A stretch of DNA of 64,000 nucleotides. Origin: Blastocatellia bacterium (GTDB lineage: Bacteria; Acidobacteriota; Blastocatellia; UBA7656). Made by a program: the position numbers and the translations under genes. Numbering within the stretch: position 1 is the stretch's first letter; each line of letters starts with the position of its first letter. Below are positions 55,134 through 64,000 of this stretch, piece after piece. The stretch spans positions 149,097-213,096 of the forward strand of contig CAVXWP010000012.1 in the NCBI GenBank assembly GCA_963765495.1, read 5' to 3'. Under the pieces are notes generated by a model. That model searched no databases and was not told the DNA's origin. It saw nothing but the letters and a program-made list of their open reading frames with translations.

Positions 55134-55206
55134 GGGCCGGTAGCTCAATTGGCAGAGCAACGGACTCTTAATCCGTGGGTTGAAGGTTCGATTCCTTCCC
55201 GGCTCA
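55134..55206 (+). tRNA. tRNA-Lys(CTT); followed by TCA rather than CCA
   Basis: Acceptor GGGCCGG/CCGGCTC, D arm GCTC/GAGC, anticodon arm ACGGA-CTCTTAA-TCCGT, T arm GAAGG-TTCGATT-CCTTC. Confidence 0.96.
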
Positions 55207-55213
55207 TCAATAT

Positions 55214-55288
55214 AATCAATAAGTTAAGGCTATCATAATGGTAGCCTTAATCACTTTTAGTCCCTTTTGACAGCAATGCTGACAGCAA
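55214..55288. promoter_or_regulatory. Att-arm region: IHF-like site, hairpin and paired integrase arm-type repeats
   Basis: AATCAATAAGTTA (55214-55226) fits WATCAANNNNTTR; inverted repeat 55224-55250; TGACAGCAA at 55268 and 55280. Confidence 0.6.
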
Positions 55289-55309
55289 CCCACATGGAAA
55301 CACAGAATT

Positions 55310-56473
55310 TCACTTATGGTCTGTAAGCAGCGCGTCCATCATGTTCAAGGCTTCTCGCCGCGCTTCCGGTGCGATATGAGCGTAGTAGTCGGCAGTCACA
55401 CTAATCTGGCTATGGCCGAGGATGTCAGAAATAGTCTTCAAGGGCACGCCTTGCGCCAGCAGCAGCGAAGCGCAACTGTGTCGAAGATCGTGAAAGCGAT
55501 AGCGGGGCAACTTAGCCGTTTCGAGAATAGCGTGATATTGGCGAATGACATTGCGGGCATCGAGCGGGGTTCCGACTGTGGACGTGAATACCAGACCGCA
55601 ATCCTGCCAACGCGATCCGACAAGTAATTTATCCTGGAGTTGTTGGCTACGGTGAGCGCGCAGGCGGGCTATTATCGCATCAGTAAGTGGAAGTTCGCGG
55701 CGGCTGTTGCGAGTCTTGAGTTCGGTAAGCTGAAGATCACCATCAATGCGTTGTAATGAATACCGCACACGTAACACTCTTGAGTTGAAATCCACGTCTT
55801 CCCAGCGCAGCCCTAACGCTTCTCCCTGCCGCAACCCCATCGCCAGCACGGTAGAGAAAAGGGCCTCCAAGCGGTCGCCCTCTATTGCTCGTAGAAATTT
55901 TCGCGCATCGTCAGGAAGCATGAATTGAACCTCTGGTCGCTCGACACGAGGAGACTCAACAAGGGTAGCAACATTGCGAGCAACCAAACCCCATTTGAGA
56001 GCTTGCCCAAGAGCACGACGCAGCACAGCACGCATGAGTTGTACTGAGCGCGGCGATAACCCCGACGATAGCTGCTCGTTCATCAACGTCTGTACGTGTT
56101 GCGGACCCAATTTTGTCAGTGTCAGCTTGCCCAACGCTGGTACGATATACCTATTTACATGCATCGCATAACATTCATAAGTTCGATAGCGCACGGACGG
56201 CTTAACACAATCTTCAAGCCATTGCGTCAAGAATTGCTTAAGGGTCTGATGTTCAGTGATAACCGGCAACCCCTTTTGCTGATCGTTCAAAGCTGCAACG
56301 AGTTTGCCTTTCACTTCTTCACGGGTGGCTCCATAAAAGGTCTTCCTGTGTAGCTTGCCGTCTCGATAACCAAGATTGATGGCAGCAGCCCACCGGCCAT
56401 CCTTCCGCTTATAGATCGAGCCTTCGCCCTGCCCGCGCTTTCTCTGCTTTTTCTCTTTAGCCATAAGTCTCAC
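55310..56473 (-). CDS. Phage/ICE-type tyrosine integrase
   Basis: N-terminal RGQGEGSIYKRKDGRW arm-binding segment; GLRQGEALGLRW, HDLRH, LGHS, YAH. Confidence 0.95.
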   Translation of the reverse strand: MRLMAKEKKQRKRGQGEGSIYKRKDGRWAAAINLGYRDGKLHRKTFYGATREEVKGKLVAALNDQQKGLPVITEHQTLKQFLTQWLEDCVKPSVRYRTYECYAMHVNRYIVPALGKLTLTKLGPQHVQTLMNEQLSSGLSPRSVQLMRAVLRRALGQALKWGLVARNVATLVESPRVERPEVQFMLPDDARKFLRAIEGDRLEALFSTVLAMGLRQGEALGLRWEDVDFNSRVLRVRYSLQRIDGDLQLTELKTRNSRRELPLTDAIIARLRAHRSQQLQDKLLVGSRWQDCGLVFTSTVGTPLDARNVIRQYHAILETAKLPRYRFHDLRHSCASLLLAQGVPLKTISDILGHSQISVTADYYAHIAPEARREALNMMDALLTDHK

Positions 56474-57635: not shown

Positions 57636-57910
57636 TCTGCTCAATGTGTAGTAAGGCAATCAAACCGGATGATGTAACAAACCTGCATCATCCGGTTTAT
57701 CGCAGCCAGGGAGGGACCGAAACCGAGCCGGTTCACAAAGGCTGTCATGTTGCCTATCACAGCACGCAAGGCGATTTTCGAGCATTCGGCCGCATTGGCG
57801 GACAGATCACAGCGACAACAAAGCGATGGGCTTTCAATCTCAGGAATGTGAAAGATCATCCGGCCTATGAACTGAGCAGGCAATTTTATCGAGCGCACTA
57901 CGCGCACTAA
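57632..57910 (+). CDS. Small HNH endonuclease-like protein
   Basis: CSMC...HH...SQGG...HKGCHVAYH pattern; TTG start overlapping the upstream TGA. Confidence 0.65.
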   Translation: MICSMCSKAIKPDDVTNLHHPVYRSQGGTETEPVHKGCHVAYHSTQGDFRAFGRIGGQITATTKRWAFNLRNVKDHPAYELSRQFYRAHYAH

Positions 57911-58200
57911 TGGAGGGAAGCATGAGCGCAGCAAGATTTCCACTAGGGCAGATGGTAGCAACACCGGGCGCACTGGAAGCACTCGCACAGACCGGCCAGG
58001 ACGCATTTGAATTTATCCGCAGACATCAGCAAGGGGATTGGGGTTGCTTGTGCGATGAAGACAAGCAAGAAAACGAATTTTCAGTTGATAAAGACCTGAG
58101 AATATTCAGCGCCTATCGCCTGAAAGATGAAACCAAGATTTGGGTAATAACGGAGGCGGATCGAAGCGCAACGACTGTGCTTTTGCCGAGCGAATATTGA
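57910..58200 (+). CDS. Conserved plasmid/ICE-associated small protein
   Basis: FPLGQMVATPGA, RH..GDWG, WVITEADRSATTVLLPSEY; alternative start 57922. Confidence 0.8.
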   Translation: MEGSMSAARFPLGQMVATPGALEALAQTGQDAFEFIRRHQQGDWGCLCDEDKQENEFSVDKDLRIFSAYRLKDETKIWVITEADRSATTVLLPSEY

Positions 58201-58252
58201 CCACACCAGACCGGGGCAAGCTCGACTTGCCCCACACTCAGGAGATACGACC

Positions 58253-58609
58253 ATGATTCATCAGATACCCGCACAGATCGAGAGCAAAAATCAGGAACTC
58301 ATCACAGACTTGGAAGACCTTGCAATTGTGCGAGAGCAGATCAAAGACAGGGAATTAGACGCAATTTGCGAAGCGGCCGACGCTCGCAACGATGAAGGAA
58401 AGCCCCTTCACACAAACGATAAGCAACGCGAGCGCGCAGCCCGGCAGAGTTTGAGAGCAGATACACAGTACACACGCGACAGGGAAACTGCCCGAATACT
58501 TGAGCGCCGTATTGCTTTGCTCAATGCTGAAATTGAAAGGCTACGCCGTGAACTCAGGATTGCGATGATTGATTATGAGCGCGCCGAGTTAGGCCAGCGG
58601 GCAGCATAA
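58253..58609 (+). CDS. Hypothetical coiled-coil protein (phage-like)
   Basis: SD AGGAG; helical, charged; GK...TNDKQR. Confidence 0.7.
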   Translation: MIHQIPAQIESKNQELITDLEDLAIVREQIKDRELDAICEAADARNDEGKPLHTNDKQRERAARQSLRADTQYTRDRETARILERRIALLNAEIERLRRELRIAMIDYERAELGQRAA

Positions 58610-58693
58610 CAAGATTAAGGGCCGCGCAGTCCCGCAAAGAATTACGCGGCCCACTATCCCACGCGCCTCATCAGCGCGTAGAAAGGTACTGTA

Positions 58694-59050
58694 ATGACAC
58701 CACAGGAGAACCCAGATAATCAACCGAGCCTGTTTATGGATGACGAAAGCAGGCTTGTACGCCTTGAAGGAATCTCAGCCGAGAGCCGCGAAGCTTTAGC
58801 TGACCTGTTGATTGTATTGCGCCGGGGGATGAGGAAAGAAGGTTGCGGCTGGCAAGTAGTAGAAGCCGAGCTAGACCGTTTCATTGAGTTGTTGTTTAGG
58901 GAGTCGGAAGCCTACAGATTCGCGCTGAGGTTATATGCAGGCCGCTATGAAGTGATAGGCGGAAGGAATGCCGCCGACATTCTGCGCGAAGTCATAGAGA
59001 AATATATGCCTGATAGTGACGAACAAAGTGCAACAGATGATAATCCATAA
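58694..59050 (+). CDS. Hypothetical protein
   Basis: SD AAAGG; last rightward gene of the element module. Confidence 0.65.
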   Translation: MTPQENPDNQPSLFMDDESRLVRLEGISAESREALADLLIVLRRGMRKEGCGWQVVEAELDRFIELLFRESEAYRFALRLYAGRYEVIGGRNAADILREVIEKYMPDSDEQSATDDNP

Positions 59051-59237: not shown

Positions 59238-60419
59238 CTACTCATCCTTTTCTGATTCGCTCTTTTTTGATTCGCTAGTACTTCTCCAATATTGGCGAGC
59301 CGCTATATATCTTTCTGAAATTGATTCCCAAGCACCATTAAGCTCAGACCCTTCGATTTCTCCTAAATCATCGAAGGATAGTTCTGAGATTTCGCCCATC
59401 TGATAGGCACGGTGTCTTTGCATAAGAACGGAAACTATTCGATCACTTGGCGGCCAGTAAACCCCTCGGTCTGTTCTAATCCTTGGAAGTCTTACACGTG
59501 TTACAATTCTAAAGGGTTCTAGCCTTTCAAGAAATGAATCAAGTTCTTTTTCACTCTGAATTAAGGTGGCAGGATACTGTTTCTTCGAAGTATCGAACTT
59601 GATCTTCACCGTAGTTCGTTCAATAGCTTTTGTGCTTGCATCTCGAAGCAATAACTGTTCACCCTTCCCCGATGTATGAATTACAAGTCCTGAAATCATC
59701 GACTTTATTGTGACAGCCCTGACAGATTTAAGCTTCTTATCCACAAACTGATAAAGCTTTTGTGGCAGCTTAACATTGTAAGAATGGGTTCCTATTATCA
59801 AAGGAAGTTGGCCTGTTAGCCATGCATCCCAAAGAAAATCATGGAGAAAGGTGTAGAACTCGCCTCTTTCATTGAAAAACATATAAGGATTGTCAGAGCA
59901 ACCTGTTTCCTCGTCGTATTCTATAGTGAATTGAGTAATCTCACCCATAAGAAAAACGACTGCTTGGAAGGCTTCATGAAGGATAGCCGAGAGTCCTTCT
60001 TTGGTAAGTCCTTCAAGGGTAAGCGTTTTAAGACCTTCTTTATGAGCTCTTTCGATTGCGCCTTGAGTGTAACCACTTGCAGAAACATAAACTCCATCTT
60101 GTGGCGGGATTCCCACATCTTTCAGCTTGCCTATAAATTCGTCTATCTTTTGAACACCAACAGATGATCTTTCGTTTTTGCACTCGAAAGCAATTCTCTT
60201 AGAATATCCTGCTACCTGACCAACGACTAAAACATCTATTTCTCGTCTTCTTTTCCCCGTTCCAAGCACGGGAAGGAATACGTTAAGGCGAACGGTTACA
60301 TCAGGGTTTTCATGAAATGCTGCTGTAATCTTCTCAACGATCTTCCCCTTCTTTACAGTAGAGCCTGTTTGCTGCCTCTGTTTGGATTGCTTTCTATTTG
60401 TAGTTTTCTTCCTTGGCAT
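59238..60419 (-). CDS. Gene cassette: Mrr_cat-like PD-(D/E)XK restriction endonuclease domain protein
   Basis: EIDV...IAFECKN...VG...IDEF...GVYVSASGYT.GA; AT-rich; bounded by attC sites. Confidence 0.8.
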   Translation of the reverse strand: MPRKKTTNRKQSKQRQQTGSTVKKGKIVEKITAAFHENPDVTVRLNVFLPVLGTGKRRREIDVLVVGQVAGYSKRIAFECKNERSSVGVQKIDEFIGKLKDVGIPPQDGVYVSASGYTQGAIERAHKEGLKTLTLEGLTKEGLSAILHEAFQAVVFLMGEITQFTIEYDEETGCSDNPYMFFNERGEFYTFLHDFLWDAWLTGQLPLIIGTHSYNVKLPQKLYQFVDKKLKSVRAVTIKSMISGLVIHTSGKGEQLLLRDASTKAIERTTVKIKFDTSKKQYPATLIQSEKELDSFLERLEPFRIVTRVRLPRIRTDRGVYWPPSDRIVSVLMQRHRAYQMGEISELSFDDLGEIEGSELNGAWESISERYIAARQYWRSTSESKKSESEKDE

Positions 60420-60498: not shown

Positions 60499-60584
60499 GC
60501 CTAACGCCGAGTTCAGCGGCGCGCTGTGGCTTCCAATGTAACTGAGCAGTTGGAAAGCGCGTCCGCTGGAATGAGCAGTTAGGC
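60499..60584 (-). repeat. attC site (86 bp)
   Basis: Minus strand GCCTAAC-TGCTCATTCCAGCGGACGCG...CGCGCCGCTGAACTCGGC-GTTAGGC: canonical R''/L''/L'/R' layout. Confidence 0.93.
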
Positions 60585-60637
60585 ACAGCCTCCTCTTCTT
60601 GGATCATCGTTCTTTACTGTTCACACTGTCACACAAT

Positions 60638-61399
60638 TCAAGGTTTCTTGCCCACTATTATCACATATCGCATATGCTTGTTTGCGAAGATGCGTTCTGA
60701 TTCCAAGATTCTTCGCAGGCCTGCTACTCCCCATCGTCTTAGAATCTTTACAATCACCCCAATGTATCCCCTCACCCCAAGCTTCCTTTTGAATTCTTTC
60801 GTCCATATCTGGAGTAATTGTGTCTTGTCGATTACTTTGACTTCTTCGAGCCCTGCTTCTTCAAACTTTCTTTTCCAACCTTCTGCTGTCTCTGGCCATT
60901 CTTGCTCAATTTCTCCAAGTCTCTGTTTTAATTCCTCTGGCGTCTCTTCAGCCCAGCAGAGGTCGTGTATACCTACAAATCCTCTAGGCATAGTGACCCG
61001 AGCCATCTCCCGGATCACTCTTTCTTTGTCAAAATGGCAAATAGCACACTCAGAGAGAACCGCGAAAAAGGAATTATCATTAAAAGGCAGTTTGTGAGCA
61101 TCAGCCGATTGGAAATCGATATTTAGTCTCTGCTCTCTAGCTTTATGCATTGCCCGTTCAATCATCAAAGCAGATAAATCCACGCCTGTAACCCGTGCGC
61201 CAAACTCTGATGTAAGAAAGCAAGCTGCCTCACCAGTTCCGCAAGCAACTTCAAGAACCGAAACTCCTGCACGAATTCTGCAAAGATTAGCAAGTTCTCT
61301 TGTGATGCTTAAGCCGCCAGGGTGAAGAATTTCGACATTTAAGTTTTCGGTTTCGATGAGGAGTTCCAAGGAGGGTTGGCTTTCTTTCGATGTAGTCAT
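60638..61399 (-). CDS. Gene cassette: class I SAM-dependent methyltransferase
   Basis: LHPGG, VLEVACGTG, GVDLS, ADAHKLPF; true start ATG 61399 downstream of the attC. Confidence 0.88.
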   Translation of the reverse strand: MTTSKESQPSLELLIETENLNVEILHPGGLSITRELANLCRIRAGVSVLEVACGTGEAACFLTSEFGARVTGVDLSALMIERAMHKAREQRLNIDFQSADAHKLPFNDNSFFAVLSECAICHFDKERVIREMARVTMPRGFVGIHDLCWAEETPEELKQRLGEIEQEWPETAEGWKRKFEEAGLEEVKVIDKTQLLQIWTKEFKRKLGVRGYIGVIVKILRRWGVAGLRRILESERIFANKHMRYVIIVGKKP

Positions 61400-61437
61400 G
61401 CGCCTATTATACACTAATCCGATTTCCCCGATTGTGA

Positions 61438-61523
61438 GCCTAACGACGAATTCAGCGGCGCGCTGTGGCTTCCGTTTCAACTGAAAAGTTGGCATGCGCG
61501 TCCGCTGGAATGAGCAGTTAGGC
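61438..61523 (-). repeat. attC site (86 bp)
   Basis: GCCTAAC...GTTAGGC imperfect palindrome homologous to 60499-60584. Confidence 0.93.
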
Positions 61524-61618
61524 TGAACATTTGATTGGATGCTTCTACTGAATTGTTTGATCCTGTTGTTAGCATTCCTGTCATTCAAGTGGTTTTTCCT
61601 ATCTGGTCGGGATCACCG

Positions 61619-61897
61619 CTAGAAGAATTCCCAATATCCTCGTCGTCCAGAATAACGGAATGAACCTTTTCTAGTCTTCCAACTCTTGAGCGCATTTCTA
61701 ACAGTATGATTCCATTCTGGTTGATTATTTCCACTGCTACAGTTCTCAGCGCAGTAGTATGAGTCATCACATAGGTTTGGATACAGATTCCTAACAGAAA
61801 CATAAATCTCTTCAATGGTCCTTGTGCCTCTTTCCATAAATGAGAAATTAGCATCCTTCAGAACTCTAGCTAGCTTGCTTTCTACGTCCCTTGCCAT
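61619..61897 (-). CDS. Gene cassette: small winged-helix protein, Mrr N-terminal-like
   Basis: SD AAGGAG; IEEIY..V, WNHTVRNAL, RGYWE pattern. Confidence 0.65.
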   Translation of the reverse strand: MARDVESKLARVLKDANFSFMERGTRTIEEIYVSVRNLYPNLCDDSYYCAENCSSGNNQPEWNHTVRNALKSWKTRKGSFRYSGRRGYWEFF

Positions 61898-61920
61898 ATT
61901 GTTTCTCCTTACTATTTATT

Positions 61921-61985
61921 GCCTAATTTCTATGTTCATGCCTGAAAGCTGTCATGATTCTATGAATAAAATTCAATAGAATCAA
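61921..61985 (-). promoter_or_regulatory. Leftward sigma70 promoter plus attI-like site inside the array
   Basis: Minus strand TTGATT(61985-61980)-17 bp-TAGAAT(61962-61957), TCATG-12nt-CATGA inverted repeat, then A|TTAGGC core at 61927-61921. Confidence 0.55.
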
Positions 61986-62065
61986 TATACGAATGAGTTC
62001 TTTCTTTGAAAAAAATGGGTCCCATCAGAATTATCCATGCGCTGGGGTTGGCGGTCATTCCACGA

Positions 62066-62151
62066 GCCTAACGCCGGGGATCAGCGGCCCGCGGTGGGTA
62101 GAGGGATAATGAAACGGTGGTACGCGGGTCCGCTGTATCCCCCTGTTAGGC
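62066..62151 (-). repeat. attC site (86 bp)
   Basis: GCCTAAC...GTTAGGC; inner arms cagcggcccgc/gcgggtccgctg. Confidence 0.9.
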
Positions 62152-62342
62152 GCGTTACATCTTGTCGGTTCAATCCTGCACATATTCTTCGAGCAAGCCG
62201 CGCCAGGAGTTCGTTGCTTTTCACCGAGAGCCTTTCGACTTGCGCGGCGGAGTGATTGTAACAGTATTGCTTGAAGACAGGTACTCTTCTCTGCGTGATT
62301 GACGATCAGTGTGCTTCATCGTCACGGATCACCTTCCAGCGC

Positions 62343-62427
62343 GCTTAACGACGGAGATAACCGGCGCGCTGTGGCTCCCGATGTAACGAGAAGTTGGCAT
62401 GCGCGTCCGGTTATGGACCAGTTAGGC
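62343..62427 (-). repeat. attC site (85 bp)
   Basis: GCTTAAC...GTTAGGC; arms taaccggcgcgc/gcgcgtccggtta. Confidence 0.9.
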
Positions 62428-62619
62428 GCATTCCACCTTGAGGTTCGGTAAAGATGCCTCTGTCGAAATGCCAAGCCGCGCCAGCAGATAGCTTCGACTC
62501 AACCAGGATTTATCGGGTAGCGCGGCGCAGTGATTGTGTCAGTACACTTTGTAGACATGTAGTCTGATTGCTTGGTTGACGACCAGTATGCCTCATTGTC
62601 ACGGATGGCTTTCCTGTGC

Positions 62620-62705
62620 GCTTAACGCCGGGGATCAGCGGCCCGCTGTGGCCGAAGGGATAACGAGAAGCTGGTATGCGGGTCCGTTGAATGCCCATGT
62701 TAGGC
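62620..62705 (-). repeat. attC site (86 bp)
   Basis: GCTTAAC...GTTAGGC. Confidence 0.9.
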
Positions 62706-62881
62706 GCGCCTTTGTCGTTGGCCGCGCTCGGCTTTCTGGGCAATTCAATCAAGGCATATCGGGAGGCGCGGCCCCAATCTTGACTCGCTGCTTTGTGACT
62801 GCGTCGTTTAGTTACTATGACATTGTTCACTCTTTTTTCCGCCTCTGTGTCGTTGCTGTTGGTCAGGAAATTTCCCCGCGA

Positions 62882-62968
62882 GCCTAACGACGGAGATAAC
62901 CGGCGCGCCGTGGCCCTCGATGCAATCGAGCAGTTGGAAAGCGGGTCCGGTTGATGGACCTGTTAGGC
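62882..62968 (-). repeat. attC site (87 bp)
   Basis: GCCTAAC...GTTAGGC. Confidence 0.9.
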
Positions 62969-63157
62969 GCGTTCAATCTTGTCGGTTCGCTTCTGCACAT
63001 ATTCTTCGAGCAAGCCGCGCACGTACATCGGTTCCAGACATCCAGCTTCTATCGGGTAGCGCGGCGGACTGATTGTAACAGCATTGCTTGAAGGCATGTA
63101 CTCTTGCTGCGTACTTGGCGATCAATATAGTAGGTTTTCTCGGACCGCTTCCAGCGC

Positions 63158-63243
63158 GCTTAACGCCGGAGATAACCGGCCCGCTGTGGGCTCAGGGATA
63201 ATGAAGGGTTGGAATGCGGGTCCGGTTGATGGACCAGTTAGGC
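63158..63243 (-). repeat. attC site (86 bp)
   Basis: GCTTAAC...GTTAGGC. Confidence 0.9.
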
Positions 63244-63437
63244 GCATTCCACCTTGTAGGTTCAATAGAGTTACTCGTTCCCCTCTGCCAAGGCGCGCCC
63301 AGTGTTGATTTGCTTTTCAATCAGCAAATATAGGAGGGCGCGGCGGACTGATTGTGTCAGCACTGTTGGCAGGCAATTAGTCTGATTGCTTCATAGACGA
63401 GTAGTATGCCTCTTTTTCACGGATGGCTTTCCTGTGC

Positions 63438-63524
63438 GCTTAACGCCGGAGATAACCGGCGCGCTGTGGGCCTCGATACAAATGAGTAGTTGGAAAGCGC
63501 GTCCGGTTCATGGACCAGTTAGGC
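63438..63524 (-). repeat. attC site (87 bp)
   Basis: GCTTAAC...GTTAGGC. Confidence 0.9.
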
Positions 63525-63718
63525 GCATTCCACCTTGTAGGTTCAATAGAGTTACTTGTTCCCCTCTGCCAAGGCGCGCCCAGTGTTGATTTGCTTTTCA
63601 ATCAGCAAATATAGGAGGGCGCGGCGGACTGATTGTGTCAGCACTGTTGGCAGGCAATTAGTCTGATTGCTTCATAGACGAGTAGTATGCCTCTTTTTCA
63701 CGGATGGCTTTCCTGTGC

Positions 63719-63804
63719 GCTTAACGCCGGGGATCAGCGGCCCGCGGTGGGTAGAGGGATAATGAAACGGTGGTACGCGGGTCCGCTGTATCCCCCTGTT
63801 AGGC
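63719..63804 (-). repeat. attC site (86 bp); another begins at 63996 and runs off the window
   Basis: Identical to 62066-62151 from TAAC onward. Confidence 0.9.
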
Positions 63805-64000
63805 GCGTTACATCTTGTCGGTTCAATCCTGCACATATTCTTCGAGCAAGCCGCGCCAGGAGTTCGTTGCTTTTCACCGAGAGCCTTTCGACTTGCGCGG
63901 CGGAGTGATTGTAACAGTATTGCTTGAAGACAGGTACTCTTCTCTGCGTGATTGACGATCAGTGTGCTTCATCGTCACGGATCACCTTCCAGCGCGCTTA

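Follow-up and report, generated by a model that had tools for sequence, protein, structure and literature searches.

Why should seven integron cassettes in a row carry no gene and share one short inverted repeat made only of G and C? These cassettes, A to G, close a stretch of 64,000 nucleotides of DNA from Blastocatellia bacterium (GenBank assembly GCA_963765495.1, here G000), called the window throughout (G000:C12:149097-213096); contig C12 itself ends at window position 64000. An earlier note, made from the letters of the window alone, had described attC-bounded units without a conserved open reading frame (ORF), each with a GC stem around a variable core of fixed length. It had proposed selection on a nucleic-acid product: a library of small RNAs or single-stranded DNA (ssDNA) hairpins with guide, antisense or decoy loops, shuffled by the integron integrase IntI, or a set of promoter modules. 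The analysis reported here finds a clade-wide family of ORF-less cassettes built round a GC clamp, GCCGCGC/GCGCGGC, whose arms are conserved as sequence and preferentially spaced by 38 nt. Paralogous ORF-less cassettes were already known; the family round this clamp, with its preferred spacing, appears to be new. The interpretation favoured, to which we give about an even chance, is that these cassettes are cis-acting promoter or structure modules mobilised by IntI, which may now persist and multiply largely as selfish short cassettes.

Seven gene-less cassettes share a GC clamp

The distal part of a cassette array, with nine attC sites, occupies the window from position 60499 to its end. Units A-G are seven consecutive attC-bounded units within it and have no ORF in common: the attC sites could be located and no frame is open throughout. 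Each of these sites is an imperfect hairpin that bears RYYYAAC ... GTTRRRY boxes and has unpaired bases in one of its arms. An exact search of the 64-kb window for GCCGCGC-N(36-41)-GCGCGGC returned five matches (starting at 62197, 62475, 62721, 63014 and 63850), all with N=38, against a chance expectation of 0.01; none of 100 dinucleotide shuffles gave five or more. Units E and F carry the variant GGCGCGC-N39-GCGCGGC. Unit G is identical to A across 203 nt and F differs from E at 1 of 203 nt, which leaves five distinct variants. The cores of A-D agree at exactly the ten of 38 positions listed in the earlier note (3, 8, 14, 19, 20, 24, 30 and 32-34), where a column comparison predicts agreement at about 0.6 positions for unrelated cores; because this far exceeds chance, the four cores are homologous and not random. 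The motif TGATTGT(A/G)(A/T)CAG lies to the right of the right arm in 6 of the 7 units, C being the exception. On these points of layout the earlier description was accurate.

The features are as follows, in window coordinates.

60499-62065, minus strand: distal end of the same array; it contains two attC sites (60499-60584, 61438-61523), a cassette for a methyltransferase (ORF 60638-61402) and another whose ORF of 92 aa lies at 61619-61897
62066-62151, minus strand: attC of cassette A, reading GCCTAAC...GTTAGGC on the plus strand; extra unpaired T's on the plus-strand 3' arm make the plus strand the bottom strand
62152-62342, minus strand: body of cassette A, type I, ORF-less
62197-62248: A element GCCGCGC-N38-GCGCGGC, arms 62197-62203 and 62242-62248 (exact search)
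62253-62264, minus strand: conserved box of A, TGATTGTAACAG on the plus strand and CTGTTACAATCA on the cassette strand, with an extended -10-like TGTTACAAT
62343-62427, minus strand: attC of cassette B
62428-62619, minus strand: body of cassette B, type I, cluster F7
62475-62526: B element GCCGCGC-N38-GCGCGGC (exact search)
62620-62705, minus strand: attC of cassette C
62706-62881, minus strand: body of cassette C, type II, about 190 nt with boxes, with another 5' module and without the TGATTGT box
62721-62772: C element GCCGCGC-N38-GCGCGGC (exact search)
62882-62968, minus strand: attC of cassette D
62969-63157, minus strand: body of cassette D, type I
63014-63065: D element GCCGCGC-N38-GCGCGGC (exact search)
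63158-63243, minus strand: attC of cassette E
63244-63437, minus strand: body of cassette E, type I, from a genome cluster of 8 near-identical copies
63292-63344: E element GGCGCGC-N39-GCGCGGC; an inward register shift gives a perfect 7-bp helix, CGCGCCC/GGGCGCG
63438-63524, minus strand: attC of cassette F
63525-63718, minus strand: body of cassette F, the copy of E with 1 difference in 203 nt
63573-63625: F element GGCGCGC-N39-GCGCGGC
63719-63804, minus strand: attC of cassette G
63805-64000, minus strand: body of cassette G, identical to A and truncated where the window and contig C12 end
63850-63901: G element GCCGCGC-N38-GCGCGGC (exact search)

Absence of a coding signal

The GC-clamp family is not protein-coding. 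A six-frame reading found no frame open in every variant on either strand (the bottom strand being shown fully for the arm-anchored frame), and ORFs confined to the body of one window unit encode 30-50 aa, none exceeding 150 bp. Substitutions within the family are flat with respect to codon phase (34/30/32 and 37/44/44), whereas the intI paralogues of the same genome, used as a control, show the expected third-position excess (25/18/106 and 103/61/193); alignments of other ORF-bearing cassette pairs were too poor to serve as controls. The window units thus have no ORF >150 bp, no protein match and no synonymous-site pattern, the criteria applied to non-coding cassettes in PMC1382264.

Could the bodies descend by decay from a single small protein gene (about 50-60 aa), perhaps one in which an in-frame TGA is read as selenocysteine? 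A few members do keep a small ORF from a conserved ATG to the TAA of attC, the longest of any family member being 62 aa (C2:596420-596627) and others 49 and 43 aa, and in one top-strand frame other members have a Cys, Phe, Tyr or Leu codon where A, B, C and E have TGA. Against this stand the missing third-position excess and the further stops in every frame, in type III cassettes (described below) as well. The conserved ATG, moreover, feeds different frames, because 1-nt indels upstream of the stem separate the sub-lineages, and the homologues in relatives stop after 2-13 codons. The 62-aa ORF has no homologue of 34-109 aa among 5.8 billion proteins, and five candidate peptides match no Pfam family above cut-off. 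A decayed gene, which the earlier note had named as a finding that would refute its proposal, is therefore largely refuted and highly improbable. Two narrower candidates were also set aside. Reading TGA as selenocysteine was dropped because of the flat codon phase and the other stops, no search for selenocysteine machinery having been made; a small peptide in the antisense frame on the plus strand is opposed by the same flat phase, by other stops and by the variant at C2:561716, which stops there.

ORFs of 72-106 aa do cross attC sites and cassette borders, at 62510-62830 (minus strand), 62576-62887 (plus), 62037-62255 (plus) and 63687-63908 (plus). They are artefacts of the repeat structure, although gene callers would probably annotate them.

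Size classes, copies and integron context

Across G000 a member of the family consists of a non-coding body of about 190-210 nt and an attC of its own, about 85 nt long. Type I (A, B, D and E in the window) has a body of 202-208 nt, a loop of N38 or N39 and 32 copies; type II (C) a body of 159-193 nt, N38 and 15 copies; and type III a body of 275-278 nt, N48 and 12 copies. Together they make up 59 of the 196 catalogued cassettes of the genome, roughly 30%, and a direct count of stems gives 70 loci in three integrons. They are the shortest cassettes in the G000 arrays. The N38/39 elements number 54 copies and 16 distinct sequences, and both arms are exact in 14 of these 16. Cassette B has four near-identical copies in the genome (cluster F7) and shares about 93% identity with cluster F1, the commonest variant with 11 copies; cassette C has seven identical copies.

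Near-identical copies, in clusters of 11, 8, 7 and 6, stand among different neighbours. The first cassette after attI belongs to type III in two of the three integrons and, in the third, to a second ORF-less-looking family. Varied neighbours and attI-adjacent members are the signature of cassette-by-cassette movement, not of block duplication alone, and give indirect evidence of excision and insertion by IntI. In the related genome G052 the first cassette after an attI-like junction is likewise a GC-clamp member (L103:190-420, next to intI; L156:10200-10600). ORF-less cassettes in first position are described as rare in PMC6557892, which, like the other published accounts cited here, was drawn on in excerpts.

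Three intact intI genes lie above the NCBIfam cut-off (TIGR02249) in G000, at C6:263576-264514, C17:4162-5100 and C3:315777-316718, and the arrays adjoining them hold the same cassette family in the canonical divergent arrangement, with cassettes running away from intI. Each of the three has its own attI and array; those on C6 and C17 are close paralogues that differ in 149 of 939 columns, chiefly at third positions. Contig C12 ends within its array before any intI is reached. Taken over from the intI-linked arrays, the orientation of the family makes the minus strand the cassette (top) strand of the window. A regular expression combined with a folding screen found about 210 attC sites in the main arrays of G000, which mostly lie at contig ends; as all arrays break there, the true number of cassettes exceeds the catalogue. 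Among 61 sampled genomes of the family and class, G000 included, 38 carry intI above cut-off.

The first bases of the cassettes differ between groups. Unit starts were compared in the window, for instance at 62343-62349 and 62620-62626, and genome-wide. TTAAGC (R' box GTTAAGC) opens the majority of type I cassettes and every type III cassette listed; four distinct type I variants start TTAGGC, and type II and nearly all other cassettes start TTAGGC or TTAGAC. The bases just past the crossover point thus go with the family of the cassette. Type III cassettes and others related to them (for example C2:48928-49205 and C17:3079-3341) also carry an R'-like box (GTTAGAC, GTTACAA or GTTAGAA) in the 5' module, about 10 nt past GTCTAC. 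This box resembles a collapsed mini-attC, and the family could perhaps have arisen by fusion of two cassettes.

The arms are conserved across genera

ORF-less cassettes with identical arms occur in five related genomes of three other genera (G052, G015, G157, G046 and G019), membership of genomes other than G000, G052 and G019 resting on inspection of the loci by eye. A class-wide count of the pattern is noisy, with 0-11 matches per strand for reversed-pattern controls, and rises above these controls only in G000 (20 vs 1), G052 (59 vs 4) and G019 (8 vs 5). As in G000, arrays adjoining intI in the relatives hold short repeated ORF-less cassettes with these arms. In G052 and G015 the cassettes measure about 180 nt and have N38 loops (21 in the main array of G052, with two further N38 elsewhere and one N37); G157 has N38 three times and N39 once; G046 has N38; and the 165-nt cassettes of G019 have N36 or N37. 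Longer loops also exist, in a 217-nt type of G052 (10-bp arms, loop of about 79 nt) and in an N86 element of G006. Loops in relatives thus fall at 36-39 nt, with a mode of 38, or at about 79-87 nt. Loop length is modal at 38 and not fixed: the constant N38/39 of the window units gives way in a larger sample to the N48 class of G000 and to these other lengths, so that a preferred value is what survives of the fixed length first proposed. Variation in loop length, which the earlier note had named as a ground for refutation, is thus partly observed.

Twenty N38 sequences from five genomes can be aligned without gaps. The left arm is invariant in 20/20 and the right arm in 19/20, and the cores are unrelated between genera. 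Six of the seven stem pairs never vary and the seventh is broken in one sequence; stem covariation, which the earlier note had suggested as a check, is accordingly zero. It is the sequence of the arms that is conserved, beyond the mere ability to pair, and the stem is real and old. Constraint at the nucleotide level therefore stands, as the 14/16 elements of G000 and the alignment across genera both indicate; the guide RNA library offered to explain it did not find support, as set out below. The homology of the cassettes across genera, judged by eye, appears from the common arms, a CAATCAC box that G052 and G015 carry upstream of the left arm, GAAATG near the start and the general architecture. 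The box CTGCAATCAC, present in the G052 and G015 homologues, is related to the conserved box of the window units.

Promoter-like motifs in sister genera

In G052 and G015 the cores contain TTGAC(T/A) at positions 6-11 and TAT(G/T)TT at positions 29-34, separated by a variable 17-nt spacer. A consensus scan found TTGACT-17-TAT(G/T)TT inside 4 of 6 N38 cores at L103:11000-20000, a region with 14 promoter-like sites vs 6.6 +/- 2.6 in shuffles. The arrangement differs in G157 and G046, where TTGCCG arises from a TT joined to the left arm and TATGAT is reached 17-18 nt later. This pair is present at 3 of 4 cores in L153, where 9 sites were counted vs 3.4 +/- 2.0 in shuffles. All these pairs lie on the cassette strand and are directed to attC and the next cassette. 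In both groups the variable part of fixed length appears to be largely a promoter spacer. Promoter geometry was considered as the origin of N=38 and dropped: it fits G052/G015 (5+6+17+6+4) and fails for G157/G046.

Promoter modules, the other proposal of the earlier note, thus gain sigma-70-like hexamers in sister-genus cores and find none in the window units. The extended -10-like box it had pointed out outside the clamp, TGTTACAAT, is present in only 4 of 10 aligned type I lineages of G000, one further lineage (u10) having the variant TGTTAGAAT.

Are the cores guides, or the stems structured RNA?

The main suggestion of the earlier note was that the cassettes make a small structured RNA or ssDNA hairpin with a variable 38-nt guide, antisense or decoy loop, IntI shuffling the library. 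A stem in every member, and a modal loop of 38 kept in four genera despite unrelated loops, are what such a library would predict. The TGTTACAAT box just upstream of the stem in the four type I lineages is a further point in its favour, and an ORF-less Xanthomonas cassette has been reported to encode a trans-acting small RNA (sRNA; via PMC6557892). The loops themselves argue otherwise. Within G000 the cores align without gaps at about 50% identity, with a consensus, and are best regarded as diverged homologues, not as a hypervariable library. Compared with G000 outside the family, their best match is 16 nt, equal to that of shuffled cores, and blastn of the whole region against 50,697 phage and 72,556 plasmid records found nothing.

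Nor does the structure behave as that of a conserved RNA. None of the seven stem pairs changes on both sides, and two arm mutations are uncompensated in register. Whole-body fold z-scores are ordinary (-3.7 to +2.6). In Rfam, the whole window gives one tRNA only at gathering thresholds, and 61900-64000 gives no match at E up to 10. The better-folding strand is the top strand in G052 (17/17) and the bottom strand in G019 (7/7) and G000 (23/33); as a test of which strand folds, the comparison is uninformative. A transcript from the start predicted in G052 and G157 would miss the left arm, since that start lies within the loop or beyond it. Pairing of the CAATCA box with the loop, as in a pseudoknot, reached significance in 2 of 16 lineages only and was dropped. 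An RNA or hairpin library of this kind is, on balance, improbable.

Two further scans gave nothing. Public pattern scans for box plus arms returned 24 genome and 19 metagenome loci, which are chance pattern matches with BLAST alignments of 20-25 nt. The possibility of a nested attC was examined with an nhmmer profile of 173 distinct G000 attC sites, whose best match to the bodies has E 3.5; the bodies lack R or L boxes, and the attC terminal-loop motif is absent from the cores as read by eye. A nested attC, too, had been named in the earlier note as evidence that would refute its proposal.

Selfish cassettes, recognised sites or promoter modules

It has nevertheless to be considered that the cassettes are purely selfish or relic, each holding an attC-like hairpin remnant captured between two working attC sites, with arms that aid their own ssDNA folding or recombination, or with a family that is simply young. 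Complete attC sites of G048 (L148), G049 (L102), G072 (L159) and G151 (L158) have GCCGCGC ... GCGCGGC as their inner stem with loops of 33-34 nt, so that in G048, G049 and G072 the arms are those of a true attC; the counterpart stems of G000 attC sites are CGGCGCGC/GCGCGTCCG or CGGCCCGC/GCGGGTCCG. High amplification, identical copies, status as the shortest cassettes of the arrays and ORF-less cassettes first after attI in all three integrons all fit, and short cassettes are reported to be excised more often in some assays (PMC5371416). The failure of the attC profile to match the bodies, their lack of R/L boxes and the cores without the terminal-loop motif are difficult to reconcile with an attC remnant, and a young family would not be expected to keep its arms across genera with unalignable cores. 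Help in folding finds no support either: the native body gives the flanking attC no folding gain in silico, since 24, 10, 10, 6, 4 and 18 of 25 shuffled bodies at least match it, and the GC hairpin was dropped as an insulator on this ground. The reversed-arm control of this test is weak, the reversed arm still being GC-rich. A relic of this sort is possible, but the chances are rather against it.

The conservation of arm sequence in the absence of covariation is what would be expected if the arms were paired recognition sites of a sequence-specific protein (a repressor or activator, a nucleoid protein, IntI or another recombinase) acting on double-stranded or folded DNA, as in a regulated or invertible promoter switch. 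The preferred spacing of 38 is consistent with this, and the N48 class of G000 is one helical turn longer. Relatives also have a second, outer GC motif pair, ACGCCTCCGCGC ... GCGCGGAGGCGT, whose one variable position is uncompensated (by eye); as a helix it beats flank shuffles in energy in 13/17 G052 units, and in only 5/33 G000 units. On the other side, no candidate binding protein is linked to the cassettes, and loops of 36, 37, 39 and about 79-87 nt also occur.

The invertible form of this explanation draws on a further observation. Compared with G052 cores, E-type and type II cores score +0.5, -1.8 and -2.7 inverted and -6.9, -9.8 and -8.2 direct, against a shuffled-core null of -7.7 (sd 0.6) for the family-wide average. 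This hints that the segment between the arms may have been flipped at least once in evolution, the flanks keeping their orientation. The signal is ambiguous: the family-wide mean difference lies within the null, B-type and u9 cores show the opposite trend, and partial palindromy is present in several cores, which equal their own reverse complement at up to 20/38 positions. Core inversion is kept as a lead only, because of the B-type result and this palindromy. For known recombinase-mediated inversion, moreover, 38 bp is too short. Protein-read arms, whether or not part of a switch, seem doubtful at best.

In the favoured account of promoter or structure modules, the integron integrase would excise, reinsert and amplify the ORF-less cassettes of one large family. 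Their only invariant internal feature is the 7-nt GC-only inverted repeat GCCGCGC/GCGCGGC, and the core between the arms is a diverged spacer. In the sister genera the clamp may enclose a promoter of sigma-70 type directed down the array, so that transcription would enter attC and then the following cassette; what varies in the core would be the 17-nt spacer of this promoter. Promoter hexamers are not recognisable in G000, and the working model is therefore that its modules are now largely selfish and easily recombined. Promoter function, selfish spread and any role of the clamp are inferred from sequence in this scheme; the structure of the cassettes, the missing coding signal, their amplification among varied neighbours, the arms kept between genera and the promoter-like motifs of the relatives are observed.

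Several results weigh against it. A sigma-70-type promoter was matched in none of the seven window units; G000 cores do not keep the -35/-10 hexamers seen in the relatives, the corresponding positions being degenerate; and since the two sister groups place their hexamers differently, both with N=38, promoter geometry is not the general cause of the spacing. Invariant arms at a preferred spacing across genera resemble a recognised site, and a purely selfish or promoter model predicts neither. BLAST of unit A against 40 relatives gave no match outside G000. The catalogue of attC sites and cassettes, finally, was built with a regular expression and a folding filter in place of a curated attC model, a screen that partly missed the attC sites of the relatives.

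A more ambitious scheme would account for both the arms and the promoters. The 52-nt GCCGCGC-N38-GCGCGGC might be an undescribed cis-element of the integron cassettes of this class, in which arms read by a protein at a measured distance on folded or looped DNA enclose an interior repeatedly co-opted as a promoter in different registers, the whole forming IntI-shuffled and possibly switchable modules. This is offered tentatively and is unlikely as it stands.

Comparison with known cassettes

Boucher et al. (2006, PMC1382264) described highly paralogous non-coding cassettes in the chromosomal integrons of Vibrio and proposed that these are either selfish or a source of promoters or RNAs; one such family has 45 and 34 copies in two V. 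vulnificus strains (PMC1382264). The GC-clamp family is like them in being short, attC-bounded, free of ORFs, protein matches and synonymous-site patterns, highly paralogous and confined to related hosts. It differs in host lineage and has no sequence relationship to them. The window family is defined by a GC inverted repeat of invariant sequence whose arms prefer a spacing of 38 nt and which is kept across genera beyond BLAST similarity; the excerpts of PMC1382264 mention no such element for Vibrio.

ORF-less cassettes with promoter activity are known from the integrons of oral Treponema (Tansirichaiya et al. 2019, PMC6557892). The present cassettes share the lack of ORFs, and the family homologues in G052/G015 and G157/G046 have good predicted -35/-10 pairs pointing down the array. 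The window units, by contrast, have no sigma-70 match, and flanking inverted repeats are not mentioned for Treponema in the parts of that article used here. The sRNA-Xcc1 of Xanthomonas campestris is a trans-acting small RNA from an ORF-less integron cassette (via PMC6557892). Its cassette is likewise non-coding and its product a nucleic acid, whereas the window family has no Rfam match and covariation 0. Short cassettes in general excise more readily under some conditions, according to PMC5371416.

The closest structural likeness is to attC itself, which shares the imperfect GC-rich hairpin and, in G048, G049 and G072, the arms GCCGCGC/GCGCGGC as inner stem. The body hairpin differs from attC sites in having neither R''/R' nor L boxes, in its lack of fit to the G000 profile and in loops unrelated to the terminal-loop motif. 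A literature search, in sources available in part and so no proof of absence, found no description of a conserved internal clamp with preferred spacing.

Other features of the window and the genome

A second large paralogous family of short cassettes in G000 has 37 copies, 33 of them distinct, of 286-451 nt; examples lie at C2:23256-23609, at C2:587169-587545 and first after attI on C3 (about C3:317460-317820). All begin GTTAGGCGTCAGA..CGATGA.AGGGAAACGACTCATCAAGC and have a CT-rich 5' half and a GA-rich 3' half. Many indels are not multiples of three, the longest ORFs encode 24-123 aa and the codon phase is flat (34/32/42; 61/58/52). This is probably another ORF-less family.

Within the window, a phage-type tyrosine integrase on the minus strand (55310-56473; Pfam Phage_integrase, Phage_int_SAM_3) comes directly after a tRNA gene (55134-55206), and 55134-56473 is likely a tRNA-targeted island between core genes and the distal array end. 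Three plus-strand ORFs of 96-118 aa at 57910-59050 have no Pfam match. Just outside the last attC (60499), a 393-aa ORF at 59238-60419 has an Mrr_cat restriction-endonuclease domain.

Significance

Gene-less cassettes can fill a large share of chromosomal integron arrays, and whether they are junk, selfish elements, promoters or RNA genes has been debated since at least 2006. For annotation the family carries a warning: ORFs of about 100 aa called over such units cross attC sites and are artefacts. In G000 one family accounts for about 30% of the cassettes in three integrons and provides a concrete target for mutation, two 7-nt arms at a set distance. This target bears on what keeps such cassettes alive and on whether integrons move regulatory modules besides genes.

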